Assembly (NCBI GenBank): GCA_947627285.1 | Contig: CANQVL010000009.1 | Span: forward strand, 9-64,008 | Source of the DNA: an uncultured Oscillospiraceae bacterium | GTDB lineage: Bacteria > Bacillota > Clostridia > Oscillospirales > Oscillospiraceae | Length of the DNA: 64,000 nt | Reading direction: 5' to 3' | Part shown: piece after piece, positions 7,098 through 63,020 of the stretch | Numbering within the stretch: position 1 is the stretch's first letter | Layout: every line of letters begins with the position of its first letter | The notes under the pieces: model-generated | What the model was told of the DNA's origin: nothing | The model's input: the letters and a program-made list of their open reading frames with translations, nothing else | Database searches by the model: none | Program-made: the position numbers and the translations under genes

Positions 7098-7129
7098 AAC
7101 GCGGCTTAAAAACGGAGTGCCAAAAGCTC

Positions 7130-7225
7130 AAAAGGATTCGGAAATGTCCGCGGACATTTCCGAATCCTTTTTCGCACGTATTCCCTTCAAGTATAGAAAA
7201 AGGCAAAGCCTTTTTCTATACTTGA
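7130..7225 (+). repeat. Hairpin-repeat family, copy A (modules HP3-linker-HP4)
   Basis: 42-nt perfect palindrome AAAAGGATTCGGAAATGTCCGCGGACATTTCCGAATCCTTTT (7130-7171), linker CGCACGTATTCCC, then hairpin TCAAGTATAGAAAAAGGC-AAA-GCCTTTTTCTATACTTGA (7187-7225). Lies between convergent genes. Confidence 0.85.
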
Positions 7226-7977
7226 TACGCCCACATATTTCTGATCTCGCCCTGTATATCCTCGTAGCTCCAGGTTTTGCAGTTGGAGGGGCGGTAGGGG
7301 TCGTAGACCTGGAAGCCCTCCTCGTCACAGCCGGTGAGGACGATGTAGTGGCCCGTCTCGGTGAAGTGACCGGTGCCCATGATGCAGATCATTGGGTTCC
7401 CCGCCTCCAGCTCGGAGCGCATGGTGGGCTCCCAAAGGGGTATCTCCCTCGCGGTGAGGCCCAGCTTTTCGGCGCCCTCGGAGAAGAGCAGCCACGCGGT
7501 GCCGTTGCCGGCGACGCAGTAGCCCTCGCTGATGGCGAAATCCGCTATGTACGCCGGCGTCAGCGTGCCGTCGCCGGTGAGGCCCATCGCAACCATGGAA
7601 AGCGCCGTGGGACCGCAGCCGGTCCAGCCCATGAGCCCGGAGCCGTAGCGGCAGTACCCCCAACGGCTGTCCCACTGGGTGAAATAGGGTATCTCGCCCT
7701 CGGCAAGCTCGTCGGAGAGGTCCAGCGTCAGGTCGTAGTCCGTCACGCCGTCAAAGCCGTCCAGGTACGCCTGGGCCTCGGGGTTCTTTTCGGAGATCTC
7801 CAAGAAGGCCTCGCGAATGTCCTCGTCGCTGATGTTGGAGTAGGCGCGGGCGCGGTTGATGAACGCCCTTATCTTGCCCATACCGCCTGTGGCGGCGACA
7901 AGGGCGGACACAAGGGCGAGGATGAGGATAAGTATTATGAGCCCCGCGAGGGGGCTTCTTTTTTTGCTGTCGTGCAT
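7216..7977 (-). CDS. Membrane-anchored C39-like (papain-fold) cysteine peptidase domain protein
   Basis: N-terminal TM helix, Cys motif GWTGCGPTALSMV, His motif GHYIVLTG. Confidence 0.7.
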   Translation of the reverse strand: MHDSKKRSPLAGLIILILILALVSALVAATGGMGKIRAFINRARAYSNISDEDIREAFLEISEKNPEAQAYLDGFDGVTDYDLTLDLSDELAEGEIPYFTQWDSRWGYCRYGSGLMGWTGCGPTALSMVAMGLTGDGTLTPAYIADFAISEGYCVAGNGTAWLLFSEGAEKLGLTAREIPLWEPTMRSELEAGNPMICIMGTGHFTETGHYIVLTGCDEEGFQVYDPYRPSNCKTWSYEDIQGEIRNMWAYQV

Positions 7978-10639: not shown

Positions 10640-13600
10640 GTGAAGAAACTGTTGGCAATGGTGTTGGCGTTTGTGATGGTACTGTCCCTTGTACCGATGA
10701 TTGATTTGACCGCGAAAGCGGCAGCAGACAAAGATCTGCATAAGGGAAGTGACGTAGGGGATGATATCACCATAGACATAACCGAGATTTCCCACGGACC
10801 GTATTATTCGGGGAAAACGGTGGAATACTCCGTTGTTTTCACGAATACCGGAGATGCCATAAAAGGAAGCGGCTCCCAAACACTGAAGATACATATATAT
10901 AACACTAACAGCAACCTTAATAACGTTTTTGATGACGTAACTCTGCCCGATAATAACCTTCAATACAGATTTGCCGGACATACGGAGAGCGAAGGCTTCG
11001 GAAACATTAAAAACGACAAATACAATCAGTTGGAGTTTGAGCTTAATGGTGATGTCCTTTTCCCGGCAAACGGTTCCATCACTTTGACATTACAGTATAA
11101 GGTCAGGGACAATGACAAGGATCTGCATAAGAACCTTGAAAACTTTATTATTATTTATTTGGGAGATACAGAAAAAGAAAATGCTGTCGGCAAATTTGTG
11201 ACGAGCAGCTTTGACCAGGTCGTCAGCGAGAAGGAGAAAGGCGAGCTTACAGTCACAAATACCGTAACTAAAGACGATGCACCCGATAACGATACGGAGT
11301 TTTCCTATACTTTGACGCTTGAGGATAAAAGCTTTAACGAAAAGGTCGATGATTTGCAGTTTACAAACGGTCAGGCAACGTTTAGATTAAAAAACGAAGG
11401 AAAACGCACGATCTCTCTCCCGGTAGGGACTGATTTTACCCTGACGGAGACTCCAAACGGAGAATTTGTGATTGAAAACACAACGACTGGCGGTACTCAT
11501 ATAGATGACAGAACAGTAACCGGAAAAATATCAAGCTCCCCGATAACGGTAGGATTTACCAATACGCTGACGAGCGCCCCAGTCGAACCGGGCGAGCCGG
11601 CGCATACGTATAAATATAAGGTCGTCTATCACGCAAACCTTCCGACGGGGGTTGAGTCGCAATATCCGGATATAAAGGATTATGAAGATAAAAATGATTC
11701 CGGATTTTTTGTGGTAAAGGAAATATGCGAAGGCGGAGAGACAAAGAACACTACCGATGATGACATTCCGCTGTTTACCGACAGCAATAGCAAACCGATT
11801 AAGTGGAGCGTAGAAGATGGAAGCGGTACGACATGGTATTTTGAGGGTTGGCATACAAGTGAATCCGTTGCCGAAGGTGATAGTATTGAATACTCTGTCT
11901 CAGATTTCTCGGGGAACAAGCGCGGCTTCGTTAAAGACGATACTTCACGAGAACTGACACTGGATACCAAAACTGTTTCACAGGACCTATACGCCATTTG
12001 GTCTAAAACGCCCGGCAGGATCGGGTATACAATGCAGGTGGAGGGCGGCAGATTCAAGGACAGCGGCAAAACGTCAGACGGTCAGCTGCTTGGAGATAAC
12101 GGAACAACAGGCTCCAACGCGAAAAAGTTTATTGTAAATGACGGAGGACATTCAAACGGAGCTACGGTTACCGCGACGCAGGAGATACCCACAAGCAGCG
12201 ATTGGAGCTTTGTAATTTGGATGAACAAAAAGGCAAATACGGATGGAGACAGCAACACAAAATACCTTGTAGGTCCCGGAAAAGAGTTCTCGTTTGGTAC
12301 GACAAGCACAAATTACAGCCTTGACGCCATATGGTCAAAAATAACTGGGACGAATGACGAAGAATACATCTATGACGGGAAATCGCACAACATTGATATT
12401 TCTAAAGTTTCAGTTGAATTCAACAATCCGTCAACGTCAAGCTCATATGATGATAACGCGAAAGCTGCCTATGACAACCTTTTTGCCAAGGATAATATTA
12501 TTACATATGACGTTTCGGTTTATGACGTTCAGAAGGATGAGGAAAGCGACACAATAATAGGGTACGAACCGGGGGACGCTGTGCCGGCAGAATTACAGTA
12601 CACGGAGCCCGGAACGTACATATATAAGATAGGGGCAAGGCTTAATTCATCATACGGGTCCGACTCTATTAATCAGACCCTCGGCTACGTTTATGCCACC
12701 CTCACGATTTTGGACACCAGCCTCACCGTCACCAAAAACGTTCCCAACGTCATCGACGACACGACGGGATTCGATTTCAAAATTGCCTTTGATGGCTGGG
12801 AACCGGCTGATCTGAAATTTAAGGACGGGACACCAGTGACCAAGGACTCCTCCTCCGGCGCTTTCAGCTTTACGCTCCAGGACGGCAAAAGCGTGACGAT
12901 TATAAGTATCCCAGTGGGCGTTTCGTACACGGTGACGGAGACAGATAAGACGAACTATATTGAGCTGACCGCTGAGCAAAAGGGCACAATTACCGGCGCT
13001 GACAAGGACCAACAGGTCACCTTTACCAATTATAAGACCGCCAGCTTGACTGTAAAAAAAGAGGTTAAAACTGACGGGGGGACGCTTCCGTCGAGCGAAA
13101 ATGAAAAAGTATTCAATTTCACGCTATCGCTTTCACTGCCAGCGGGAATGCCGGATCAGACTATTGAGGGGCAAACTGTAAAAAGCGGCGAGACGACCGA
13201 TATAAGCTTTGCGCTGAAGGCTGGCGAAACAAAAGAGTTTACCGGTATACCGTTCGGCTCCACATACAGCGTCAAAGAGAAGCTTGAAGGCACGGACGAG
13301 CACTTCTACACGCAGGCTTTTACCAGCGACCATGGTACTATCGGCGAAACAATCGACAGTGAAAGTGAGACAATAACCTGCACAAACACATACCATGAAA
13401 ACGCTTCGGATACAGGGCGCCTCAGGATAACCAAATATGCCGCCGGTATGGCCTCGCTGACCGAATTCAAGGTTAAGGTGACGTATGAGTATAATGGGGA
13501 CCCTGCACATATAGAGTTGTATAATTCATTCAAGACGGCAGAAGGGATCACCTCCGGTGATTCTCAGACCTACACGATCCCGAGAAACGGCAGCATTTTG

Positions 13601-15301
13601 ATCAAAAATATCCCATACGGCACCAAGTATACGATCGAGGAGGTCTTTGATGCAGGTTCCACTAAGCCGAGGAACATGCTGATCACCGTACCTGATGGCG
13701 AGGCGGGGGAGTATGAGATTTCCGGAACAGGCACTAGCGCCAAGGTAAGCGGCGCTATTCTGGAGAAGGACGAGGGCGCTGAAGGCTATGACTTTGACAG
13801 CGTGACGCTGACAAACCGGTACCTCGGCGACCTGACCATTAAAAAAGAGGTTGACGGGGATTATAAGCCTGAGACCTGGGAAGTTGAGCTCACACTTAAA
13901 TTCAGCGGCTTTGATAAAAGCGAGCTTGGCCTCCTTGAAAACGCCATGCGCATTACCGACGCCAATGGAGAACGCACCGCGGCGGAGCTTATGGAGGACT
14001 TTAGAGTTGACGACGCCGTAACCGTCACCCTCACCAATGAGAAACCGGAGGCTGTCGTATATGACGTACCCATTGAACGCACCAGCTACGTCATCTCCGA
14101 GGACTCCGAATTCGCGGGCGATACGGTTAAAATCCAGGTGGGCACCGGAGCGGAGAAGGAGGCGTCCCAGACAGACCCCACGGTTTTCACAAACGAAACG
14201 GCAAACGTGGTATTTAAAAATAGTTATACCGAGGAGCCGCCCGCGCCTCCCACCATCTATCCACCAATCGAAAATCCCGCCTCTACGCTGACCGTTACCA
14301 AGAGGGTCGACGGGGAGGGCGCCGATACAGAGCAGGAGTTTGATTTCACCGTGAAAAACAGCTCCGGCGTTGAGATTGCGTCGTTTAAGCTCAAAAACGG
14401 CGGGACACGCTCCGTATCCGTCACGCCGGGCGCTGAATACACGGTCACAGAGGAATATGTATCCGGCTACACGCCTAAGTGGAACGGCGAGGTAAACGGA
14501 AGCGTATACACCTTTACCGCAAAAAGCGGTGTGAACCGCGCGGAGTGTGTTAACACATATAAAAGGCCGTACACCGTCCCCGACGTTCTGGACGCGGACA
14601 GCCATTACGCTTACGCGGTGGGCGATACCTTCGGGCTCATTCTTCCAAACAGCACCGTCACGCGCAAGGAGGTCGTCGCTATCCTGTTCCGCCTGCTCAA
14701 GGAGGACGTGAGGATGGAAAACTGGAGCCAGGAGTCGCCCTTTGCCGACGTGCCCAATGACGCGTGGTATTCCAGCGCCGTGGGAACGCTCTACAACCTG
14801 GGGTATCTCCACGGCACAGGCGGCGGCAAATTTGAGCCCGACCTGCCCATGACGCGCGCCGAGATAACGGCTCTTGTGGCGAGCTTCTTTACCGGCTCGC
14901 AGACCGACGGGGATCTGCCCTTTGACGACGTGGACGGGGACGCCTGGTACGCCGACGACATAAGGACGGCCTTTGAGGTCGGACTTGTGGAGGGCGACGG
15001 CGACAGGACCTTTGAGCCCGAGGACACGCTCACCCGCGCCGAGGTGATGACCGCCTTCAACAAGCTGCTTGACCGCCATCCCAACCAGGACACCCTGCTG
15101 GAGGGCATGATCGAGTGGCCCGACAACCTGGATACCTCCGCGTGGTACTACGCCCAGATCCAGGAGGCGACCAATTCCCACACCTGCGGCGACAGGTGGA
15201 CAGGGGAGGACGGAGAAATTTACGAGCGCTGGGAGTCTCTGACCAAAAACCGCGACTGGCTCGGCATATCCTGGGAAAACGTCCCGAATTACGAGGAATA
15301 A
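10640..15301 (+). CDS. Large secreted cell-surface protein: signal peptide, at least 6 Cna-B/SpaA-like repeat domains, three C-terminal SLH domains
   Basis: GTG start with signal peptide KKLLAMVLAFVMVLSLVPMIDLTAKA. Recurrent LTVTK.V...F.F...G.S..I..IP.G..YTVTE modules. SLH repeats: FADVPNDAWYSSAV, FDDVDGDAWYADDI. Confidence 0.85.
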   Translation: MKKLLAMVLAFVMVLSLVPMIDLTAKAAADKDLHKGSDVGDDITIDITEISHGPYYSGKTVEYSVVFTNTGDAIKGSGSQTLKIHIYNTNSNLNNVFDDVTLPDNNLQYRFAGHTESEGFGNIKNDKYNQLEFELNGDVLFPANGSITLTLQYKVRDNDKDLHKNLENFIIIYLGDTEKENAVGKFVTSSFDQVVSEKEKGELTVTNTVTKDDAPDNDTEFSYTLTLEDKSFNEKVDDLQFTNGQATFRLKNEGKRTISLPVGTDFTLTETPNGEFVIENTTTGGTHIDDRTVTGKISSSPITVGFTNTLTSAPVEPGEPAHTYKYKVVYHANLPTGVESQYPDIKDYEDKNDSGFFVVKEICEGGETKNTTDDDIPLFTDSNSKPIKWSVEDGSGTTWYFEGWHTSESVAEGDSIEYSVSDFSGNKRGFVKDDTSRELTLDTKTVSQDLYAIWSKTPGRIGYTMQVEGGRFKDSGKTSDGQLLGDNGTTGSNAKKFIVNDGGHSNGATVTATQEIPTSSDWSFVIWMNKKANTDGDSNTKYLVGPGKEFSFGTTSTNYSLDAIWSKITGTNDEEYIYDGKSHNIDISKVSVEFNNPSTSSSYDDNAKAAYDNLFAKDNIITYDVSVYDVQKDEESDTIIGYEPGDAVPAELQYTEPGTYIYKIGARLNSSYGSDSINQTLGYVYATLTILDTSLTVTKNVPNVIDDTTGFDFKIAFDGWEPADLKFKDGTPVTKDSSSGAFSFTLQDGKSVTIISIPVGVSYTVTETDKTNYIELTAEQKGTITGADKDQQVTFTNYKTASLTVKKEVKTDGGTLPSSENEKVFNFTLSLSLPAGMPDQTIEGQTVKSGETTDISFALKAGETKEFTGIPFGSTYSVKEKLEGTDEHFYTQAFTSDHGTIGETIDSESETITCTNTYHENASDTGRLRITKYAAGMASLTEFKVKVTYEYNGDPAHIELYNSFKTAEGITSGDSQTYTIPRNGSILIKNIPYGTKYTIEEVFDAGSTKPRNMLITVPDGEAGEYEISGTGTSAKVSGAILEKDEGAEGYDFDSVTLTNRYLGDLTIKKEVDGDYKPETWEVELTLKFSGFDKSELGLLENAMRITDANGERTAAELMEDFRVDDAVTVTLTNEKPEAVVYDVPIERTSYVISEDSEFAGDTVKIQVGTGAEKEASQTDPTVFTNETANVVFKNSYTEEPPAPPTIYPPIENPASTLTVTKRVDGEGADTEQEFDFTVKNSSGVEIASFKLKNGGTRSVSVTPGAEYTVTEEYVSGYTPKWNGEVNGSVYTFTAKSGVNRAECVNTYKRPYTVPDVLDADSHYAYAVGDTFGLILPNSTVTRKEVVAILFRLLKEDVRMENWSQESPFADVPNDAWYSSAVGTLYNLGYLHGTGGGKFEPDLPMTRAEITALVASFFTGSQTDGDLPFDDVDGDAWYADDIRTAFEVGLVEGDGDRTFEPEDTLTRAEVMTAFNKLLDRHPNQDTLLEGMIEWPDNLDTSAWYYAQIQEATNSHTCGDRWTGEDGEIYERWESLTKNRDWLGISWENVPNYEE

Positions 15302-15308
15302 AGCACTT

Positions 15309-15341
15309 TTGTCAAAAAAGGGCGCAGCCCTTTTTTGACAA
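15309..15341. terminator. Bidirectional terminator hairpin, HP4-like module of the repeat family (copy H)
   Basis: TTGTCAAAAAAGGGC-GCA-GCCCTTTTTTGACAA, about 90 percent identical to HP4 at 61436-61469. Confidence 0.7.
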
Positions 15342-15345
15342 TCTT

Positions 15346-15383
15346 AAGCGGAGGACCATTTGATTGGTCCTCCGCTTTTTAAA
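15346..15383 (+). terminator. Rho-independent terminator
   Basis: AAGCGGAGGACCA-TTTGAT-TGGTCCTCCGCTT followed by TTT. Confidence 0.7.
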
Positions 15384-15650
15384 GACGCGCAGGAGACGCA
15401 CCTTGTCGCCAGAACAAGGGTTTTGACTCCCTTTTGGCTTTTGACCTTTCGTCCCGCGCTTTGTTTTTCTTTCGGCGCTGACACCGGTCTGATTGAAAGC
15501 CTCATCGCGTCTGAGCTTATTATGCGCCCTGATTTCACAAGTAAACATGGAAATAACGGAAAATAGCGCGCAAAACCTTGCCAGACTGCGAAAAAAATGG
15601 TATACTAAATTGATTAATACGCAAAAACCACACAACATATAGGTGATCGA

Positions 15651-17636: not shown

Positions 17637-17640
17637 AACT

Positions 17641-17714
17641 GGCGAAAAATGCCTTACGGCATTTTTCTGCCAATAGGTGATTTTTCCGATGTACATGCCG
17701 CCGGAAAAATATTT
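17641..17714 (-). repeat. Hairpin-repeat family, copy B (HP1 plus an HP4-like hairpin, opposite orientation)
   Basis: The reverse complement reads AAATATTTTTCCGGCGGCATGTACATCGGAAAAATCACC-TATTG-GCAGAAAAATGCCGTAAGGCATTTTTCGCC. Confidence 0.75.
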
Positions 17715-17763
17715 GATTGAGATTTTTGGCGGCGGTTATACCTTTCGAAAGGAGCCATGGCCT

Positions 17764-22792: not shown

Positions 22793-22827
22793 AACCCCGG
22801 CATGAAGACCCGGTTCGCAAAAATCTC

Positions 22828-23016
22828 TTAATTAAATATTTTTCCGGCGGCATGTACGTCGGAAAAATCACCTCTTGTTTTGCAAGCGTGCGCCCCTTCG
22901 GGGCGTGCGCACAGCAAAACAGCAGAAAAAAATTTCGGAAATGTCCGCAGACATTTCCGGAATTTTTTTCGCACGCTCCCCATTGCCCAAAAAGGGCGGA
23001 GCCCTTTTTGGGCAGC
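22828..23016 (+). repeat. Hairpin-repeat family, copy C (full: HP1-HP2-HP3-HP4)
   Basis: HP1 22839-22867, HP2 22877-22920, HP3 22926-22969, linker CGCACGCTCCCC, HP4 22984-23015. Confidence 0.85.
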
Positions 23017-23021
23017 AAAAA

Positions 23022-23094
23022 AGCGGCCTACGAGGCTCGAACTCGCTACCTCCACCTTGGCAAGGTGGCGCTCTACCAGATGAGCTAAGGCCGC
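23022..23094 (-). tRNA. tRNA-Gly (anticodon GCC), CCA not encoded
   Basis: Reverse complement GCGGCCTTAGCTCATCTGGTAGAGCGCCACCTTGCCAAGGTGGAGGTAGCGAGTTCGAGCCTCGTAGGCCGCT folds as a cloverleaf: 7-bp acceptor stem, anticodon loop TTGCCAA, TTCGAGC T-loop. G1-C2-G3 and U73 fit Gly identity. Confidence 0.85.
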
Positions 23095-23179
23095 ACGGAA
23101 CGGTATTGATTATAACCTCCCCGTGCGGCTTTGTCAAGAAGTTTTTTTGCTTTATAAAAATTTTATAAAAATTTTCTTC

Positions 23180-37043: not shown

Positions 37044-39564
37044 TCCTCTCCGCCTGCTCCTGTCGCTGACCCTGTCCGGCGGGATACTGACGCTTTTTAT
37101 CGCCCTGCTGTGCCGCGTTCTTAGGGGGAGGGTCCCGGCGGTGCTGGCGGCGCTGCTGTGGCTTGCGGCGCTGGCGCGGTTTCTCATTCCCCTGGGCGCG
37201 GAATGGAGCCTGATGGCGCAGATTTTAACTCCGCCGGAGGAGGCCGCGCACTCCGCGCCTTCGGAGCCCGCCGGCGACGCGGAAGCCGTACAAATCCCCT
37301 CTCCGCCTGCGCAGACATCGCCTCCAAGCGCCGAAACGCCTGTCCACGCCGCGCCGGAGCCGGATTTTCCGGTCGAGGCGCCCGCGCCGGTACGTAAAGG
37401 ACCCGACGCCGCGTCAATAATCATGACTTTGTGGGCTGTTGGCGTCTTGCTGTGCGCCGCAACGTTCCTGGTCAGCGCCGCAAGATTTCGCCGGGAGCTC
37501 CGCCGCCGTGAGGTGGCGGCGGGGGAGGACGCGGAGGACGCCTGCCGCTCCGCCGCAAAAGAGCTGGGGATAGGCTGTCCCGCTATACGCAGATCCGCCG
37601 CCGTCACCGGTCCCATGCTGGAGGGCGTCATCCGCCCGACGGTGTGGCTGCCGGCGTCCTGCCCGGAGGGGGAGGAGCTTCGGCTTGCTCTCCTCCACGA
37701 GCTTACGCACCTGCGCCGCCGCGACCTGTGGTACAAGCGCGCGGCGCTGGTGAACGCGTGCCTCCACTGGTTCAACCCCGCCGCCTGGTATCTTCTGCGC
37801 GCGGTCGGGAGGGACTGCGAGCTCGCCTGCGACGAGACGGTGGCGCTGAGGCTCACCGACCGGGAAAAGCCCGTGTACGGCGAGCTCCTTTTGCGCGGCG
37901 CGTCGAAAAACCGGCAAAACAGCATCCTCTTTATGCCCTTTGGAAACTCCAAAAGAATCATGAAAGAGAGGTTGACAATAATCATGAGAAAAAATCCAGA
38001 CAGCCGAAGCTCCCGTGCCCTGACTGCCCTGTGCGCGGCGGCCGCCTTAACACTCGGCGCGGTCCTGGGCTCCTGCGGCTACGCCTCGGCAAGCGGCAGA
38101 GATGCCGAAAAAGACCCTGAAAAACCTGGGGATACGCAGATAGAAGCGTCCGGCGCCATAAATTTCGGCGCCCTTGAGGAGATGGATCTGATCGCCGTGG
38201 ATACCGTGAGCTCCGGCTCCTCCATCGCGGCGATAGTGTGGGACGGACAGAGGCAAACAGTTTACATAACGCTTGACTCCGGCGCGACGTGGACCGAGGA
38301 CCTCCCGGAGCCGGGCTATGACGGCGGGGCGGAGGCGGAGTATACCCGCGGCGGAACCGGCGTCTTCCCGGTCTGCGGGCTTGAAAACGGTGCCGCGGCG
38401 CTCTATCGTGTGGAGCTCACGGGCAGGAGCCTGGGGCTTGTCCGCTGGGAGGACAGGCTGATGTTTGCCGATATGGAATTCGTGGAATCCCAGCGCGTCG
38501 CCGAAAGCCGCCTCGCCCTTGCCGACCTTGACGGCGACGGGGAGGAGGAGCTGGCGGCTGCCGTGGCTAACTCTGTCGGTTCCGGTGTTGACTGCTTTGA
38601 CCTCTACGTCTTTGAAAGGGACAGATCGGCGGCGGTACTGCGTTGGCAGGACGCGGCGGAGCTCCTTGAGGAAAACCTTTCCGGCTCCTTCGACCCGGAG
38701 ACCTGCGTTTACACCGTCGCCCTCTCCGGCAGGGCATGGGAGCTGGACCTGTCCGCCGACGCTCAGTGGCTGGCGGACTCCCCGATAGGCGACGGCGGGC
38801 TTGACGCCTCCGGGAGCGTCACAGCCGATCTTGAAAACCTTGTCCTCTCCGTGGTCCTCCGCCCGGAGGGTATGCCGGCCTACGACCTGGCGGCTCTCGC
38901 CGTCCCCGTGGCATACTCCGGCTCCGTCCTCACGCCCGACATCTCCGCCGCCGCGCTGGATCCCCTCGCCGGACCTGCCCGTGAGGCCTCGCCGATCCAG
39001 CTTGAAAGCTATATAGACGCGTTAAAGGAGGTCCTTCGGGGCGAGAGGGACTTCTACTGCCGGTCCTCGGAGGGCGAGAGCGTGGGAGAAGCCAACGTGG
39101 GCTCCATCGAAAAAGCCCTGACGCCGGACCCAGTATCCAAGGGCGAGGTAAACGGCTTTACCGTCCTTGATATGGACGGCGACGGCGCTGTCGAGGCGGT
39201 ACTGAGCGTATACTACGGCGGATATGAGCAGGCAAGCGTCGTCTTGCGGCGTACCGCCGACGGGGTGGAGGGGATACGCGTTTGGTCAAGAAGCTTTTCC
39301 GGCTTAAAGACCGACGGCACCTTTGAATCCTCCTCAGGCGCGGACAACGCCGAGATACGCGTCCTTCGCGGCGGGGAGATCCAAACCCTCTGGTCCCGTG
39401 ACGGCGCGTACGACGAAAACGGCTCCTTCCTGGGCTGGGAGTACCGCAAGGGCGGTGAAAAGTGCGCCGAGGAGGAATTCCAAGCCGCCCTCGCCCTCCA
39501 ATCCTCCAAGCCCGCCGCCCAATATTACGATTTGACCCCGGAAAACATAAACCAAATCAGATGA
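37036..39564 (+). CDS. BlaR1-type M56 membrane metalloprotease sensor with a large non-PBP extracellular C-terminal region
   Basis: HELTHLRRRD zinc motif. Overlaps the blaI stop. The C-terminal ~480 aa lack SxxK/KTG motifs and contain LADLDGDGEEEL and VLDMDGDGAVE (FG-GAP/VCBS-like). Confidence 0.8.
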   Translation: MADPLRLLLSLTLSGGILTLFIALLCRVLRGRVPAVLAALLWLAALARFLIPLGAEWSLMAQILTPPEEAAHSAPSEPAGDAEAVQIPSPPAQTSPPSAETPVHAAPEPDFPVEAPAPVRKGPDAASIIMTLWAVGVLLCAATFLVSAARFRRELRRREVAAGEDAEDACRSAAKELGIGCPAIRRSAAVTGPMLEGVIRPTVWLPASCPEGEELRLALLHELTHLRRRDLWYKRAALVNACLHWFNPAAWYLLRAVGRDCELACDETVALRLTDREKPVYGELLLRGASKNRQNSILFMPFGNSKRIMKERLTIIMRKNPDSRSSRALTALCAAAALTLGAVLGSCGYASASGRDAEKDPEKPGDTQIEASGAINFGALEEMDLIAVDTVSSGSSIAAIVWDGQRQTVYITLDSGATWTEDLPEPGYDGGAEAEYTRGGTGVFPVCGLENGAAALYRVELTGRSLGLVRWEDRLMFADMEFVESQRVAESRLALADLDGDGEEELAAAVANSVGSGVDCFDLYVFERDRSAAVLRWQDAAELLEENLSGSFDPETCVYTVALSGRAWELDLSADAQWLADSPIGDGGLDASGSVTADLENLVLSVVLRPEGMPAYDLAALAVPVAYSGSVLTPDISAAALDPLAGPAREASPIQLESYIDALKEVLRGERDFYCRSSEGESVGEANVGSIEKALTPDPVSKGEVNGFTVLDMDGDGAVEAVLSVYYGGYEQASVVLRRTADGVEGIRVWSRSFSGLKTDGTFESSSGADNAEIRVLRGGEIQTLWSRDGAYDENGSFLGWEYRKGGEKCAEEEFQAALALQSSKPAAQYYDLTPENINQIR

Positions 39565-39574
39565 TCTCAAAACC

Positions 39575-39640
39575 AAAAGGATTCGGAAATGTCCGCGGAC
39601 ATTTCCGAATCCTTTTTCGCGCGTTTCTCTTTTTCGAAAA
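39575..39640 (+). repeat. Hairpin-repeat family, copy D (HP3-linker plus a mini hairpin)
   Basis: Same 42-nt palindrome as copy A, linker TCGCGCGTTTCTC, then TTTTTCGAAAA. Confidence 0.85.
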
Positions 39641-41760: not shown

Positions 41761-41910
41761 GGGAGCTTCCTCCTGACGTGATTTTATTTCGCTACAATAA
41801 TATCACATACCCGGAGAAATTGGTAGGGGATTAATAAACAAATTTTTAAAAATGTGTTGTAATTTTGCTGTACCAAAAGCAAAAGGAACAGCCGATTCAG
41901 TGCAATTCCT

Positions 41911-42088
41911 TTAATTATATATTTTTCCGGCGGCATGTACGTCGGAAAAATCACCTTTTGTCGCGCAAGTGTATGGTCTTTGACCATGCGCGCAGCGCGA
42001 CGGCAGGAAAATTTTTTTGAATTTCGCAAAATTCAAAAAAATTTTCTGAACGTTTCCATCTTTCGGAAAAGGGTTTACCCTTTTCCGA
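41911..42088 (+). repeat. Hairpin-repeat family, copy E (full: HP1-HP2-HP3-HP4)
   Basis: HP1 41922-41950, HP2 41960-42001, HP3 42007-42046 (all-A/T stem, CGCA loop), linker TGAACGTTTCCATC, HP4 42062-42088. Confidence 0.85.
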
Positions 42089-42096
42089 CGGTAAGC

Positions 42097-42125
42097 AAAA
42101 GGAGACGCCTTGAGGCGTCTCCAAT
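42097..42125 (-). terminator. rpmA terminator
   Basis: GGAGACGCC-TCAA-GGCGTCTCC followed by TTTT on the minus strand. Confidence 0.75.
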
Positions 42126-42140
42126 GGTGGAAATTTCGTG

Positions 42141-42404
42141 TTACTGCGCGGCTTCCTCGTAAACGGAGACCTGCTTGCGCTCGCGGTTGATGTGCTCATA
42201 GCGGACGGTGCCGGAGACCAGCGCGAACAGGGTGTCGTCGCTGCCCTTGCCCACGTTGTTGCCCGGGTGGATCTTTGTCCCGCGCTGGCGGACAAGGATG
42301 TTGCCGGCGAGGACGTACTGCCCGTCGGAGCGCTTCACGCCAAGGCGTTTGGACTCGGAATCGCGACCGTTCTTGGTGGAGCCCATTCCTTTTTTATGTG
42401 CCAT
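42141..42404 (-). CDS. rpmA: 50S ribosomal protein L27 (no N-terminal propeptide)
   Basis: [22 protein letters not shown]. Confidence 0.95.
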
Positions 42405-42757: not shown

Positions 42758-42849
42758 TGACCTTTTCACCTCTTAAAAAATAGAGTCTCGCTCTCGCAGG
42801 CGCGCCGGAAAACCGGCGACTTTACGGCTCAGCTCAAAGCGGCTTTCCA

Positions 42850-42878
42850 ATTATACCTTCGCGGACCTGAAAAGTCAA
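42850..42878 (-). promoter_or_regulatory. rplU-rpmA promoter, followed by a ~90-nt structured leader
   Basis: Minus strand TTGACT - 17 nt - TATAAT. The leader contains the CGCCGG-TTTT-CCGGCG hairpin and a T-run before the RBS. Confidence 0.5.
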
Positions 42879-42908
42879 CACCTTTTTTGAAAAATCCGCC
42901 GCTTTTTC

Positions 42909-43658
42909 TCATTTATATACCCTGACCATTACCCTCAGCCGCCCCTTTTTCGTCTCGCGGGCGATACCCTCGTACAAAAACCTCCCGTAGTGCCTCACGG
43001 ATACCACGGTCCCCGGCTCCAGTGAGGCGGAGGGGGAGGAGGCGAGCCTTCCCGAGAGGAAAACCTGCTCCTTCGCGATGAGCTCCTGCGCCTGAGCGCG
43101 GGACAGCCTGTACACCGCCGCCACAGCCGCGTCAAGCCTCTCCGACGCCACCACCAGCTCCGACAGGGGAGGGGGCGCGGAGAGCTTCTCCGGCGGCTCG
43201 GAGCGGCTCACGGATACCGTCGTGCGCCTCACGGACGTCAGGCTCTCGCAAATAAATCCCGCGATGGACTCAAGGCAGAAGAGATACCCCACATTGTCGG
43301 AAATCTCAATGTCCCCCAGCACCTCCCGGCGTATGCCCAGCGCCATCAGCGACCCCAAAAAATCCCTGTGCGTCAGGGCGTCGGCAAATTTCTGGCTGAC
43401 CGGCTCCAGCTTGAGGCACACCACCGGCGGCGCCTCCACATATCCGCAAAGCTCCTCCGAGCCAAAGCACGCCACCCTCCTCTCGGAGGACTCAAGCCCC
43501 CCGAAAAGCGTAAAGGGGCACGTGACCCTGAGCCTCAGCAGCACGTCCTGCTCCGCCGGGGTCAAAAACTCCGAGAACACCCACTGCCCGCGCCCCTCGG
43601 CGCGCCGGGCAAGCTCGCTGAGCCTGTTTTTCAAAAGAGCCTCGTTTTCCATGCTCAT
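42909..43658 (-). CDS. YlmH-like RNA-binding S4-domain protein
   Basis: N-terminal FLTPAEQ motif and a C-terminal S4-like segment (RLDAAVAAVYRLSRAQAQELI). Confidence 0.7.
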   Translation of the reverse strand: MSMENEALLKNRLSELARRAEGRGQWVFSEFLTPAEQDVLLRLRVTCPFTLFGGLESSERRVACFGSEELCGYVEAPPVVCLKLEPVSQKFADALTHRDFLGSLMALGIRREVLGDIEISDNVGYLFCLESIAGFICESLTSVRRTTVSVSRSEPPEKLSAPPPLSELVVASERLDAAVAAVYRLSRAQAQELIAKEQVFLSGRLASSPSASLEPGTVVSVRHYGRFLYEGIARETKKGRLRVMVRVYK

Positions 43659-44155
43659 CTCCTCAGCGCCTTCCCCAGCCTTTTTACGGCAAGCTGTCCC
43701 GCAAGCCCGGTGAACGCCCCGGCTATGATGCCGGAGACCGCCAGCACCGGCAGGTAATATATAAGCGACGGTGTGCCCGTGACCGCGATCGCCGCCCCGA
43801 TCTGCCCTAAGTTGTGCCCCAGCGCGGCAAAAACCGACGACACCCAGATCTGCTTTTCCGTCATGATTTTTCGCGTGAGCAGAAGCACCAGGTACGCCGT
43901 AAGCCCGCCGGACAGTGAATAAATCATCGCCGCGGGGCTTCCCGCGATGAGCCCCCCCAGCAGTATCCGCGCCAAAAGCACCGCCAGCGCGTCGCCGGGA
44001 CCCAGCGTGAACATCGTCACCACCGTCACGATGTTGGCAAGCCCCAGCTTCACCCCCGGCACCGGCACGATCTCAGGTATCTGGAGCTCCACAATAAAGA
44101 TAGTCAACGCCACGGCGGTGAGCACCCCGTCCCTGGCAAGAGAGCGAACGCGCAT
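43655..44155 (-). CDS. Gx transporter family membrane protein (heptaprenyl diphosphate synthase component I-like)
   Basis: VELQIP...PGVKLGLANIVT motif; about 5 TM helices. Confidence 0.75.
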   Translation of the reverse strand: MRVRSLARDGVLTAVALTIFIVELQIPEIVPVPGVKLGLANIVTVVTMFTLGPGDALAVLLARILLGGLIAGSPAAMIYSLSGGLTAYLVLLLTRKIMTEKQIWVSSVFAALGHNLGQIGAAIAVTGTPSLIYYLPVLAVSGIIAGAFTGLAGQLAVKRLGKALRR

Positions 44156-60775: not shown

Positions 60776-60920
60776 CCGTTTCACCCTCCTTTTTTCACTT
60801 ACAGGTGCATTATACCACTAAGCTAAGTAAAAGTCAAGTAAAATTTTAAAGTAAAGTAAAATACAGCAAGATTTGCAATGTTTTTTCGGGGGAAATCGGG
60901 ATCCGGCGAGGAAGGATGAT

Positions 60921-61355
60921 ATGGTAAGAGAAATTGCGGAAAATGATTTTGACGGTCTTTTGAGGCTTTATACGCAGCTGCGCGATAATCCTTTTCCTGA
61001 AAAGAACGATAAAGTAATCGGGATATGGGAGAGCATACTGAGCGATAAAAATCATCATTTGATCGTTGCGGAAGAAAACGGAATTTTGGTATCCTCGTGC
61101 GTATGCGTCATTATTCCGAATCTGACACATGAGCAGCGTCCATACGCGCTGATCGAGAATGTGATCACCGATGAGAATTACAGAAAAAAGGGTCATGCGA
61201 CAGCTTGTTTGAATTTTGCAAAGGAAATTGCCCGACGCGAAAATTGCTACAAGATGATGCTGCTGACCGGTTCAAAAAGTAAGGATACCCTCAGTTTTTA
61301 TGAGCAGGCGGGATATAACAGGAAGGATAAAACGGCTTTTATACAATGGCTGTAA
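60921..61355 (+). CDS. GNAT family N-acetyltransferase
   Basis: YRKKGHATACLNFAKEIARRENCYKMML acetyl-CoA motif region. GAAGGA RBS. Confidence 0.8.
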   Translation: MVREIAENDFDGLLRLYTQLRDNPFPEKNDKVIGIWESILSDKNHHLIVAEENGILVSSCVCVIIPNLTHEQRPYALIENVITDENYRKKGHATACLNFAKEIARRENCYKMMLLTGSKSKDTLSFYEQAGYNRKDKTAFIQWL

Positions 61356-61379
61356 ATTCCTGCTTGTCAAGACGACGCA

Positions 61380-61469
61380 AAAGCCCTTGAGAAAGGTCCG
61401 CGGACCTTTCTCAAGGGCTTTCCGCACGTTTCCCCCCGTCAAAAAAGGGCGAAGCCATTTTTTTGACGG
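61380..61469 (+). repeat. Hairpin-repeat family, copy F (HP3-linker-HP4)
   Basis: AAAGCCCTTGAGAAAGGTCCGCGGACCTTTCTCAAGGGCTTT, linker CCGCACGTTTCCCC, CCGTCAAAAAAGGGC-GAA-GCCATTTTTTTGACGG. Confidence 0.85.
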
Positions 61470-61495
61470 GGAACGAAACCGCTAACTTGATGACC

Positions 61496-62068
61496 CTATT
61501 TCCAATATACCTTTGCGCCGGATATTTGGATCGCTGCGTTCTTTGGCAGCTTCAACGAATGCAGGATATTCAAATAATCTCCGCAGCTTCCTCCGATATG
61601 TATTAAGCTGAAAACGCAAAGCGTTATGCTTAAAAAAGTATATGTACGCGGGATCACCATAAATAATGTCAATGGAACAAGCCCTAAAATCATTGACGGA
61701 AACAGGTTCACAAAAATAAATCTGTTTCTCGACATTGGCGTGATACAGGTTGCGCCAAGTCCCTGCATTGTGTAGAACAAAAACACATCACTACCCGCCG
61801 GAAAACAAATCGCGTGGAGAAGCTCGTGTACGGGAAAGAATAACAACGCTATTAAAATGCCTATCATCCAGATGGCTCTTGAAAATGCGACACCGCCCAA
61901 AAATACGCTTTTGCAGTAGACGAAAAGGGCGAATATGAGCAGTATCGGCAGCAAAATGACAGCGGATCTTGCGGTAACCTCCGGCAGAGATTTTGTGTCA
62001 GTTTTAACCTCGACCACAGGTAAATTGTGCCCGTCATACTTTCCGATCCACTTGATATTCATTCTCAT
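61496..62068 (-). CDS. Polytopic membrane protein with HExxH motif (DUF3267-like putative zincin)
   Basis: FFPVHELLHAICF, with 4-5 hydrophobic helices. Confidence 0.6.
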   Translation of the reverse strand: MRMNIKWIGKYDGHNLPVVEVKTDTKSLPEVTARSAVILLPILLIFALFVYCKSVFLGGVAFSRAIWMIGILIALLFFPVHELLHAICFPAGSDVFLFYTMQGLGATCITPMSRNRFIFVNLFPSMILGLVPLTLFMVIPRTYTFLSITLCVFSLIHIGGSCGDYLNILHSLKLPKNAAIQISGAKVYWK

Positions 62069-62077
62069 TAACCTGCG

Positions 62078-62554
62078 TTACCCCTCTTTCCCGTCTTCAA
62101 CGTCATCCAATTTCTCGCGGCGTTTTTTGTATATCAGGCGGGAGAGCTCCAGGAGGGCGAGGCAGGGGATAAACACGGCGGCGCTTATTGCGAGGATTTG
62201 AAGGGTGGGGCGGAGGGCGATCGGTCTTTTCAGGATAACAAACGCTCTGACGGAATTGATGAGCCCGAGAATAAATGAGGCTATGGCGCTTGCTATGATG
62301 TTGGCTTTGAGCGTCGGGGTATATTTTCGCGTCCACAGGCCGTTTTTCAGGCAGGAATACACGCCATATACGCTTGCCGCGAATAATGCGGCGAGCTCGC
62401 CCATCAGCTCCTTTAAAGTCGTCCCCAGCAGCGCCTGTAGAATAACGGCGGCAAACAATACCCAGAACACCAGCCAAAAACCGAACTCCTCGATTTTCAG
62501 CATTTTTATGTCCTGCATTTCATCAAGCATATTTTTTGATTTTTTGATTTTCAT
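62078..62554 (-). CDS. Hypothetical 4-TM membrane protein
   Basis: Hydrophobic helices. The start overlaps the stop of the XRE gene. Confidence 0.55.
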   Translation of the reverse strand: MKIKKSKNMLDEMQDIKMLKIEEFGFWLVFWVLFAAVILQALLGTTLKELMGELAALFAASVYGVYSCLKNGLWTRKYTPTLKANIIASAIASFILGLINSVRAFVILKRPIALRPTLQILAISAAVFIPCLALLELSRLIYKKRREKLDDVEDGKEG

Positions 62555-62805
62555 CAGTTTTCCTCCTCGCCAAACAGTTCATCAAGTGATTTTCCCAGTA
62601 CCCTGCAAATTGCGCGGCATAATTTGATCGTCGGATTATAATCGCCCTGCTCTATGGCGTTCATCGTCTGCCGGGAAATGCCGACAGCCTCCGCAAGCGC
62701 CTTCTGCGTCATATCCAACTCCCCCCTCGCCGCCTTGATTTTCAAATTCCTGCCTATTCTGACCACCTCCTCATACAGAGTAACATATATACGAACAAAT
62801 GTCAA
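62554..62805 (-). CDS. Small XRE-family helix-turn-helix regulator (start codon uncertain)
   Basis: MTQKALAEAVGISRQTMNAIEQGDYNPTIKL. A GAGGAGG motif lies inside the ORF-track N-terminus, so the true start is probably downstream of 62805. Confidence 0.75.
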   Translation of the reverse strand: MTFVRIYVTLYEEVVRIGRNLKIKAARGELDMTQKALAEAVGISRQTMNAIEQGDYNPTIKLCRAICRVLGKSLDELFGEEEN

Positions 62806-62826
62806 CTATATACGACAAATTTTATT

Positions 62827-63020
62827 TAATTTTTATAAAATATTTTTTCCAAGGACATGCGCCTTGGAAAAAACACCTTTTGTCGCGCAAGTGTGTCGCC
62901 TTCGGCGACGCGCGCAGCGCGACAGCAGGAAGACCCCCGAGAAAAGCCCGCAGGCTTTTCTCGGGGGTCTTCCGCACGTTCCCCTTGGCATTTAGAGCCC
63001 GCAAAGCGGGCTCTAAAGCC
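62827..63020 (+). repeat. Hairpin-repeat family, copy G (full: HP1-HP2-HP3-HP4)
   Basis: HP1 62843-62873, HP2 62882-62923, HP3 62928-62973 (CGCA loop), linker GCACGTTCCCC, HP4 62987-63020. Confidence 0.85.

Follow-up and report, generated by a model that had tools for sequence, protein, structure and literature searches.

The stretch of DNA considered here is a window of 64,000 nucleotides from an uncultured Oscillospiraceae bacterium (contig CANQVL010000009.1 of assembly GCA_947627285.1), with a G+C content of 58% and a gene content of Oscillospiraceae type. Three hairpins (HP), designated HP1, HP2 and HP3, were singled out in an earlier note on this DNA as a likely functional RNA or structure-specific binding site; they prove to be modules of a dispersed, intergenic, non-coding repeat of about 200 bases. 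One copy of this repeat, copy E, lies between rpmA, which encodes ribosomal protein L27, and degV. The element is a mobile, terminator-associated repeat, which the earlier note did not recognise, at least copy E being an insertion, and the fold of HP1 and HP2 has probably been kept for the element's own spread. The parts of copy E and of its insertion site are the following:

41877 to 41887, no strand: left direct repeat, AAGCAAAAGGA, defined by alignment of occupied and empty alleles; about 17-19 nt long if mismatches are allowed.
41888 to 41920, + strand: 5' leader, A/T-rich (…TTCAGTGCAATTCCTTTAATTATATA), within the 216-bp segment missing from contigs L121 and L125.
41921 to 41951, + strand: HP1, a stem of 12 bp closed by a GCATGTA loop, its eighth pair being a G·U.
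41952 to 41959, + strand: pyrimidine-rich linker CACCTTTT at the HP1-HP2 junction, unpaired in the consensus structure.
41960 to 42001, + strand: HP2, built from an outer stem of 7 bp, the internal loop AA/GCA and an inner stem that contains U41970·G41990 and U41972·G41988 and is capped by a UUU triloop.
42006 to 42047, no strand: HP3, a 19-bp palindrome of A and T only, with a CGCA loop at 42025-42028.
42048 to 42092, + strand: spacer (GAACGTTTCC…) and HP4 (CGGAAAAGGG-TTTA-CCCTTTTCCG), reaching the 3' end of the inserted segment.
42093 to 42103, no strand: right direct repeat, overlapping the rpmA terminator at its U-tract and at the foot of its stem.
42101 to 42122, - strand: native intrinsic terminator of rpmA, the insertion target (GGAGACGCC-TCAA-GGCGTCTCC followed by TTTTGCTT), unchanged in the empty alleles.

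The clearest sign of mobility comes from strain comparison at this site. The L27 protein beside copy E is encoded on 12 public contigs, and in two of them (L121 and L125) the rpmA-degV spacer is 216 bp shorter, the missing segment being bounded by AAGCAAAAGGA. The empty site reads …GGAGACGCC-TCAA-GGCGTCTCC-TTTTGCTT|TTGGTACAGC…, and in the occupied alleles copy E stands antisense to rpmA, placed exactly after the U-tract of its terminator. Its flanks form a perfect direct repeat of 11 nt (41877-41887 and 42093-42103), with an extended match at 14 of 17 positions, and HP4 falls within the inserted segment.

Similar arrangements are found well beyond this locus. At nine distinct loci from several species the element is flanked by direct repeats of 21-33 nt, each of which is a complete terminator-like hairpin (at L046, for example, AAAAAAGACCTGCC-TGCG-GGCAGGTCTTTTTGT occurs on both flanks), and flanking repeats scoring at least 20 were detected at 10 of 94 copies, compared with 0% of permuted controls. 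The gene on the HP3/HP4 side is convergent with the element in 87 cases and not in 14, and the gene on the HP1 side is co-oriented in 49 and divergent in 44. There is no relation between orientation and local GC skew (37 vs 39). The downstream side of intrinsic terminators is the homing target of the element, which inserts there in a fixed orientation.

All told, the complete element consists of a leader (at least about 21 nt), HP1, a CU-rich linker, HP2, HP3, a spacer (GCACGTTCCCC) and a variable HP4. Conservation starts about 21 nt 5' of HP1 (AAAAAnCYCAAAATnAAATAT) and ends at GCACGTTCCCC, 3' of HP3. The window holds three full copies (C, E and G), one short copy and three copies that lack HP1 and HP2, a density of about one per 10-15 kb; all are restricted to intergenic DNA, and the housekeeping genes that flank them include those for L27, ribosomal protein L1, tRNA-Gly and PPK2. 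A pattern of 21 fixed bases drawn from HP1 has four matches in the window and none in 100 shuffles, and a covariance model also finds only four HP1-bearing copies, with scores of 98-105 bits on the + strand (C 97.9, E 104.6 and G 102.6) compared with 16-23 on the opposite strand; the match in copy E spans 41915-42005. The copies other than E are:

22817 to 23014, + strand: copy C, with leader, HP1 at 22838-22868, HP2 at 22877-22920, HP3 at 22925-22970 (loop CGCA at 22946-22949) and HP4 at 22983-23014; it abuts tRNA-Gly (23022-23094, - strand).
62822 to 63019, + strand: copy G, with HP1 at 62843-62873 (CCAAGG/CCTTGG variant), HP2 at 62882-62923, HP3 at 62927-62972 and HP4 at 62986-63019; its end is 3 nt away from the stop codon of rplA.
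17637 to 17725, - strand: short copy (51.8 bits), with leader, HP1 and a single terminator-like hairpin, HP2 and HP3 being absent; it lies between a gyrB/parE-like gene and sdaAB and is kept in a related genome (L025, 95% identity).
7117 to 7227, + strand: copy without HP1 and HP2, with leader-like GTGCCAAAAGCTC, HP3 at 7130-7171 (CGCG apex), TCGCACGT and HP4; flanked by convergent genes.
39560 to 39629, + strand: copy without HP1 and HP2, with leader-like CAGATGATCTCAAAACC, HP3 at 39575-39616 (identical to the HP3 at 7130) and TCGCGCGT; HP4 absent.
61366 to 61471, + strand: copy without HP1 and HP2, with HP3 at 61380-61421 (CGCG apex), CCGCACGT and HP4 at about 61434-61471; flanked by convergent genes.

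The three full copies had already suggested that several stems change in sequence while keeping their pairing, and the sequences reported in the earlier note are confirmed. The HP2 outer stem is GTCGCGC/GCGCGAC in copies E (41960-42001) and G (62882-62923) and GTTTTGC/GCAAAAC in copy C (22877-22920), so that three pairs are exchanged. The HP2 apical stems (ATGGTC-TTT-GACCAT, GTCGCC-TTC-GGCGAC and GCGCCCC-TTC-GGGGCG) differ in all three copies, and copies C and E share the HP1 stem CCGGCG/CGTCGG, where G has CCAAGG/CCTTGG. The covariation expected from these comparisons does emerge when many copies are aligned. RNAalifold applied to 41 distinct copies recovers a 12-bp HP1, a 7-bp HP2 outer stem, the internal loop and the HP2 inner stem, with 97.5% of the cells paired as against 81.9% in column shuffles and 36-60% in slid registers. 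Among 116 covariance-model hits the corresponding values are 94.2%, 78.7% and 38-60%, in an alignment that was fitted to the model and is hence biased towards the structure. Cells with both bases changed number 171 in the 41 copies (53 when shuffled) and 474 in the 116 hits (147 when shuffled), and compensatory change on both sides is seen at 16 and 19 of the 28 pairs, respectively. Many of these copies come from one genome, within which copies are related to each other, and the cells are not independent events. Across species there are at least 12 distinct, fully complementary HP2 outer stems (GTCGCGC, GTTTTGC, GTCACGG, GTCACGC, GGCCCGC, AGCCCGC, AGTCCGC, AGCCCTC, AGTTCCC, AGGCCGC, GCCCTGC and AGTCTGC).

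The search pattern itself imposes part of the invariance of TTTTCC, CATG, GGAAAAA and CACC. Ten copies were found by the model alone, and all ten keep CATG, so the constancy of the HP1 loop is not just an artefact of the search. These copies add new compensations in the outer HP1 stem (CC/GG to TC/GA, GC/GC or CCC/GGG). The CACC linker is not invariant among them (ATCC, CACT, TTCC, GCCC and CTCT occur), and only its CU-richness persists; a reading of the CACCU linker as an anti-Shine-Dalgarno sequence was rejected on this ground, the CACC having come from the search pattern. Also rejected was a UNCG tetraloop at the HP2 apex, where the full stem leaves UUC, UCC or UAC triloops.

The mismatches within HP1 and HP2 are distributed very unequally between the two strands. 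Over the 28 pairs in 116 copies there are 345 G·U and 23 A·C oppositions, along with 114 G·A and 11 C·T, and outside the four habitual wobble sites G·U still exceeds A·C by 64 to 20. The wobbles noticed previously (T41972·G41988 and T41970·G41990 in copy E, T62894·G62910 and T62892·G62912 in copy G, and T22935·G22960 in copy C) are all present. The U·G equivalent to 41972/41988 (alignment pair 59:91) is kept by all 41 distinct copies and, in the alignment of model hits, by 95 of 106, and the pair adjoining it is either G·U or G-C. The comparison of strand energies proposed in the earlier note points the same way: RNA parameters give the + strand the lower energy in 62 of 64 copies (means of -49.3 and -39.4 kcal/mol), and DNA parameters do so in 63 of 64. 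The + strand of copy E has a folding energy of -45.6 kcal/mol (z -6.7), and its - strand one of -31.6 (z -3.05). These comparisons support selection for the + strand fold of HP1 and HP2, as opposed to neutral decay. Sequence alone does not separate RNA from folded single-stranded DNA.

HP3 departs from this pattern. Its 48 distinct stems are near-perfect palindromes of 19 bp in which 18 of the 19 positions show two to four Watson-Crick pair types, and the loop is CGCA in 49 of about 51 full copies. Within the window, the CGCA or CGCG apex noted before is indeed present, as CGCA in copies C, E and G and as CGCG at 7130-7171, 39575-39616 and 61380-61421, where the HP3 sequences quoted in the earlier note occur. 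Mismatches are strand-symmetric (11 G·T and 11 A·C), and because the two are equal the HP3 wobble T22935·G22960, which had been offered as strand evidence, carries no strand information. The proposal of a functional fold in place of neutral decay thus holds for HP1 and HP2, with their wobble bias, + strand stability and matched arms, and does not extend to HP3. This hairpin is under the same constraint on either strand, or is constrained as DNA, and correction of the palindrome at the DNA level is a fair alternative for it. HP4 differs widely in sequence among copies. In a terminator scan, HP3 (on the - strand) and HP4 (on the + strand) of copy C pass, and those of copies E and G fail, having a stem of A and T only or a T-run within the stem.

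One of the more informative properties of the element is the way its modules are reassorted. Among 39 compact window-type copies, HP1, HP2, HP3 and HP4 variants are unlinked, their mutual information being that expected from shuffling; this holds even for HP2 and HP3 (P = 0.54), which are only 6-20 nt apart. Copies therefore exchange segments freely. Despite this shuffling, the outer arms of HP2, separated by 30 nt, are paired in all 41 compact copies (39 have Watson-Crick pairs throughout and two include one G·U), where free assortment would pair them in 38% (P about 1e-14). When the arms are split by a structured insert of about 130 nt, two of eight match, which is the random expectation, and four are clean chimeras. 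It follows that mismatched compact hairpins are removed by selection or repaired by some hairpin-level DNA process, and for HP1 and HP2 selection is favoured because wobbles, tandem G·A pairs and the internal loop persist.

The insert at the HP2 apex is a conserved and strongly structured segment in its own right, about 115-130 nt long (GGGGTCCCCACGCAATCATGATTGCGTGGGGAGAGGAGGAGCGAAGCC…GACGACGAG), without a match in Rfam and absent from the window. It is carried by L001, L006 (- strand), L010, L030, L041, L043, L052, L054 and L056 (- strand), with variants in L013, L031, L097 and L114, and the HP2 outer arms of its carriers are mismatched in six of eight. It may represent an optional RNA domain or another element nested within the first.

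The repeat is widespread among related bacteria. A pattern scan of one genome per species listed at least 73 matching stretches, at least 55 of them from a single rabbit-gut Oscillospiraceae assembly (CANPYX01) that is about 95% identical to the window in the overlapping parts. The remaining stretches listed belong to sheep, goat, chicken and human-gut members of the family, among them Dysosmobacter, Evtepia, Butyricicoccus and a Flavonifractor isolate. One cultured carrier is Flavonifractor sp. HCP28S3_F3 (locus L066). A stricter pattern is matched by 46 metagenome contigs, from gut or rumen metagenomes, and viral contigs yielded zero copies. In other species an extra 5' part (…AAAGCCTCGCAGAGTT) is followed by a further hairpin, HP0, and the last hairpin has the apex GCGAAGC or CTTG; in the window type HP0 is absent and the CGCA hairpin is present instead. 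Contigs L130 and L131 stop at or inside the element, as do L009, L036 and L047. The element evidently breaks short-read metagenome assemblies, and copy numbers in metagenome-derived genomes are therefore underestimates. Rfam 15 at the gathering threshold, applied to the window and 15 related loci, returned only tRNA and a tetrahydrofolate (THF) riboswitch elsewhere, and a permissive scan of 41800-42200 gave only chance miRNA-like matches on the A/T palindrome. No described equivalent was found in the literature, the human-microbiome RNA-motif catalogues (e.g. PMC8040213) not having been compared motif by motif. If confirmed, the element represents an undescribed repeat family.

We favour, with moderate confidence, the reading that this is a modular, mobile, non-coding repeat of Oscillospiraceae in which the HP1-HP2 fold is kept for the element's own spread and HP3 and HP4 serve as barriers. 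HP1 and HP2 would act as a folded single strand, most probably RNA, transcribed as the 3' untranslated region of a co-oriented upstream gene; this is suggested by the roughly half of the copies in which such a gene ends 14-100 nt before HP1, without room for another terminator. The RNA would end at HP3 or HP4, two-way hairpin barriers or terminators that would keep both neighbouring genes terminated. Given that the repeat is mobile, selection may act on its propagation and not on an RNA function for the host. Selection at the level of the element is favoured because more than 50 copies per genome cannot each serve the host, and because the fold is kept across species while the ends vary. Element lineages that lost the fold would stop spreading, the fold being a cis-recognition module for the copying machinery, and insertions would be harmless because the target terminator is duplicated and HP3 and HP4 stand as barriers.

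Several observations weigh against this favoured reading. The insertion polymorphism rests on a single empty-site comparison, that of copy E; look-ups of L1, PPK2, the gyrB-like protein and the 398-aa protein that neighbours copy C returned either no record or occupied alleles only. No flanking repeat is detectable in most copies, and its length is variable where it is found (11 nt in copy E, 21-33 nt at the nine loci). Ends resembling inverted repeats (TCAGACTGYYGACAAA / TTTGTC…CAGKCTGA) are confined to a subset of copies (L006, L040, L061 and L062) and are not locus-specific. Neither the window nor the 0.85 Mb of loci searched contained a recognisable transposase, reverse transcriptase or repeated open reading frame. 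For 44 of 93 copies the gene upstream runs divergently, so that + strand transcription is not implied there, and no consistent sigma-70-type promoter was found upstream of HP1; a promoter-like site is present in copy G only (9/12, ending just before HP1) and was not found in copies C and E. DNA folding parameters favour the + strand as RNA parameters do, and G·T and G·A are the best tolerated mismatches in DNA. Finally, the label of terminator for HP3 and HP4 goes partly beyond the scan, because several of them lack a canonical U-tract or a G+C-rich stem.

Among the alternatives, the one that survives best, though we consider it doubtful, is that of a miniature inverted-repeat transposable element (MITE) moved by a DDE transposase with long target duplications, in the manner of IS1202, its internal hairpins being mere passengers. 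The element does have the features of a MITE in being small, non-coding, multi-copy and polymorphic for insertion (at least 55 copies in one genome, the 216-bp indel and no conserved open reading frame). Moreover, the 21-33 nt duplicated at its flanks recall the 27 bp that IS1202 duplicates, and the four loci just named supply candidate inverted repeats. Such ends, however, are lacking in most copies and, where present, fit other copies no worse than their own, and terminal inverted repeats were rejected as a general feature for these reasons. The ends lack the TGT start of the IS1202 family, the duplications range from 11 to 33 nt and escape detection in most copies, no transposase was recognised in the loci searched, and a DDE transposon gives no reason for a conserved, strand-specific internal fold. 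A further proposal, that the upstream flank duplicates the copy's own HP4 arm, was dropped when no own-copy excess was seen.

Rather less probable is a family of stand-alone small-RNA genes, in which each copy would have its own promoter and give a + strand RNA of about 190 nt, made up of HP1 and HP2 with HP3 and HP4 as terminators, that acts in trans for the host, for example by pairing of the linker with ribosome-binding sites. A fold specific to the + strand, hairpins with T-runs at the 3' end, a single-stranded linker that is CU-rich in all copies and the promoter-like site just before HP1 in copy G are all consistent with such genes. The stable transcript of about 190 nt that the earlier note had predicted is not borne out by the upstream region, which lacks a consistent promoter, in copies C and E even a promoter-like site. 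The approximately 21 conserved nucleotides before HP1 are too short to include a -35 box, a -10-like TATTTT would place the start of the RNA inside the 5' arm of HP1, and in other species HP0 fills the upstream space. Nor does the CACC of the linker remain conserved under a relaxed pattern, and the more than 55 copies in one genome, the empty-site polymorphism and the duplicated targets are features of a mobile repeat.

It is improbable that the fold has not been selected at all, the palindromes being kept by gene conversion and template-switch correction and the covariation being inherited from a few amplified masters. The strand symmetry of HP3 is what such a process would leave, modules are indeed swapped between copies, and near-identical copies in one genome inflate the count of independent events. 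Correction of palindromes should, however, erase wobbles and internal loops, yet the U·G at 59:91 is kept in every one of the 41 copies and tandem G·U and G·A pairs persist, as does, across species, the internal loop. The excess of G·U over A·C among sporadic mismatches, the dozen or more perfectly complementary HP2 outer stems across species and the matching of HP2 arms amid unlinked flanking modules argue further for selection.

Still less likely is a relic or non-autonomous transposon of the single-stranded-DNA kind, either associated with IS200/IS605 palindromes or of REP/RAYT type, whose hairpins would be recognised on one strand. Its attractions are that the hairpins are strand-specific, with DNA parameters also favouring the + strand, and that they lie close to the ends of the element. 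Those families, however, insert without target duplication and in an orientation that tracks the replication strand. The duplications of 11-33 nt and the lack of any relation to GC skew led us to reject membership in IS200/IS605 or REP/RAYT; no Y1 transposase was found in the window or the 0.85 Mb of loci, and the element is far longer and more modular than REP. An integron attC site can be dismissed, as the core sites RYYYAAC … GTTRRRY are absent at the hairpin feet of all copies and the flanks hold housekeeping genes, not a cassette array.

How a repeat kept for its own spread would be copied can be apportioned only roughly. A DDE-type MITE with long duplications is a real but minority possibility, a single-stranded-DNA mechanism and RNA-templated copying are both unlikely, to about the same degree, and the rest falls to something else. 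Copying by way of the + strand RNA would make the element a bacterial retroposon resembling the short interspersed nuclear elements (SINEs), an idea that we regard as a long shot. On this model transcription would begin in the leader, and the RNA would have the HP1-HP2 fold as its recognition handle and end at the first working terminator, whether HP3, HP4 or one captured from the donor locus. Its reverse transcription would follow, into a nick next to a second terminator. Such a route would explain the RNA-type constraints seen on the + strand only and the terminator-like 3' end, as well as an HP4 that differs between copies and nonetheless lies inside the insertion of copy E. It would also explain the variable duplications of 11-33 nt, the ragged 5' leaders and the lack of a transposase.

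Structured interspersed repeats are known from other Firmicutes, including BOX, RUP and SPRITE of Streptococcus pneumoniae and the bcr1-type repeats of the Bacillus cereus group, and compensatory changes and transcription have been reported for bcr1. Like the present element, these are short, non-coding, multi-copy intergenic sequences with optional modules and predicted stable folds, often found at gene ends. The present element is not known to share sequence similarity with any of them. It differs in having a core of two local hairpins with wobbles fixed on one strand in place of end-to-end pairing, in duplicating its target terminator whole (21-33 nt) and in the independent assortment of its module variants. 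The REP and BIME sequences of enterobacteria offer a second parallel as abundant extragenic palindromes at 3' ends between convergent genes, with stems that show compensatory variation, and they act as mRNA-stabilising or terminating hairpins. REP, however, is a single imperfect palindrome of 20-40 nt with a conserved GTAG head that is mobilised by RAYT transposases; the present element is about 200 nt long, with four or five different hairpins, a strand-specific core and target duplications.

Homing to terminators recalls the class C group II introns, which insert just 3' of intrinsic terminator hairpins in a fixed orientation and recognise structure, not sequence. These introns are ribozymes of about 2 kb that encode a reverse transcriptase and make no target duplication, and neither intron domains nor Rfam intron matches were found here. 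Within the IS1202 group, a subgroup has repeats of about 24-29 bp (a range not found in the text of the preprint cited below), and we know of no member of the family that targets terminators. The likeness lies in the unusually long direct repeats and in one subgroup that inserts in an oriented manner beside a structured site; the difference is that the present element has no transposase that we could find and no TGT start, shows inverted repeats in a subset only and makes repeats of no fixed length. IS1202 itself makes a 27-bp direct repeat, and the ends of the family typically start with TGT (bioRxiv 10.1101/2022.12.17.520857).

The surroundings of the copies in the window show some features of their own. 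Close to copy E, contig L120 carries a Rep_trans / DUF3846 gene block (139-1899) upstream of rplU in one strain, at the place that holds ylmH and its neighbours in the window (about 42800-43700) and in other strains; this block is a strain-level insertion or replacement. At 43512-43598 (- strand) ARAGORN calls an 87-nt tRNA-Lys(ttt) for which the Rfam tRNA model gives no call, probably a false positive because it lies inside a well-supported open reading frame (42909-43658, YlmH-like, with a G+C content at third codon positions, GC3, of 0.83). The tRNA-Gly beside copy C has a perfect consensus promoter upstream (TTGACA-17-TATAAT, 12/12, at 23109-23137 on the - strand), and HP4 of copy C is its sole terminator-like hairpin. 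After rplA, at the usual place of rplJ-rplL, lies a block of low GC3 (60846-62805; 0.50-0.64 compared with about 0.8 elsewhere) with genes for a GNAT acetyltransferase, DUF3267 and DUF6773 proteins and a Cro/C1-type helix-turn-helix protein. The block, delimited by copy G and the HP3/HP4 copy at 61380, was probably acquired. A solitary hairpin of HP4 type (TTTTGTCAAAAAAGGGC-GCA-GCCCTTTTTTGACAA) stands at 15306-15345, directly 3' of a large S-layer gene and followed by a second terminator hairpin at 15350-15385; it resembles a remnant or minimal version of the 3' module of the element. The gene (10640-15301, + strand) encodes a cell-surface protein of 1553 aa with six DUF7601 repeats, five DUF5979 repeats and SLH domains, and its GC3 of 0.60 is below that of its neighbours.

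If confirmed, these results would add an undescribed and very abundant repeat family to a major group of gut bacteria. Sitting at the ends of housekeeping genes, the element could alter transcription termination and mRNA stability. It also provides a natural test of structural selection, as its modules shuffle while hairpin arms stay matched and wobbles are fixed on one strand. The duplication of whole terminators, where it occurs, leaves both neighbours terminated and points to structure-directed targeting. A conserved fold on one strand has no role in ordinary cut-and-paste transposition, and an undescribed mechanism of bacterial mobility could come to light once its reader is identified, whether this is an RNA-binding factor, a reverse transcriptase or a structure-specific recombinase.

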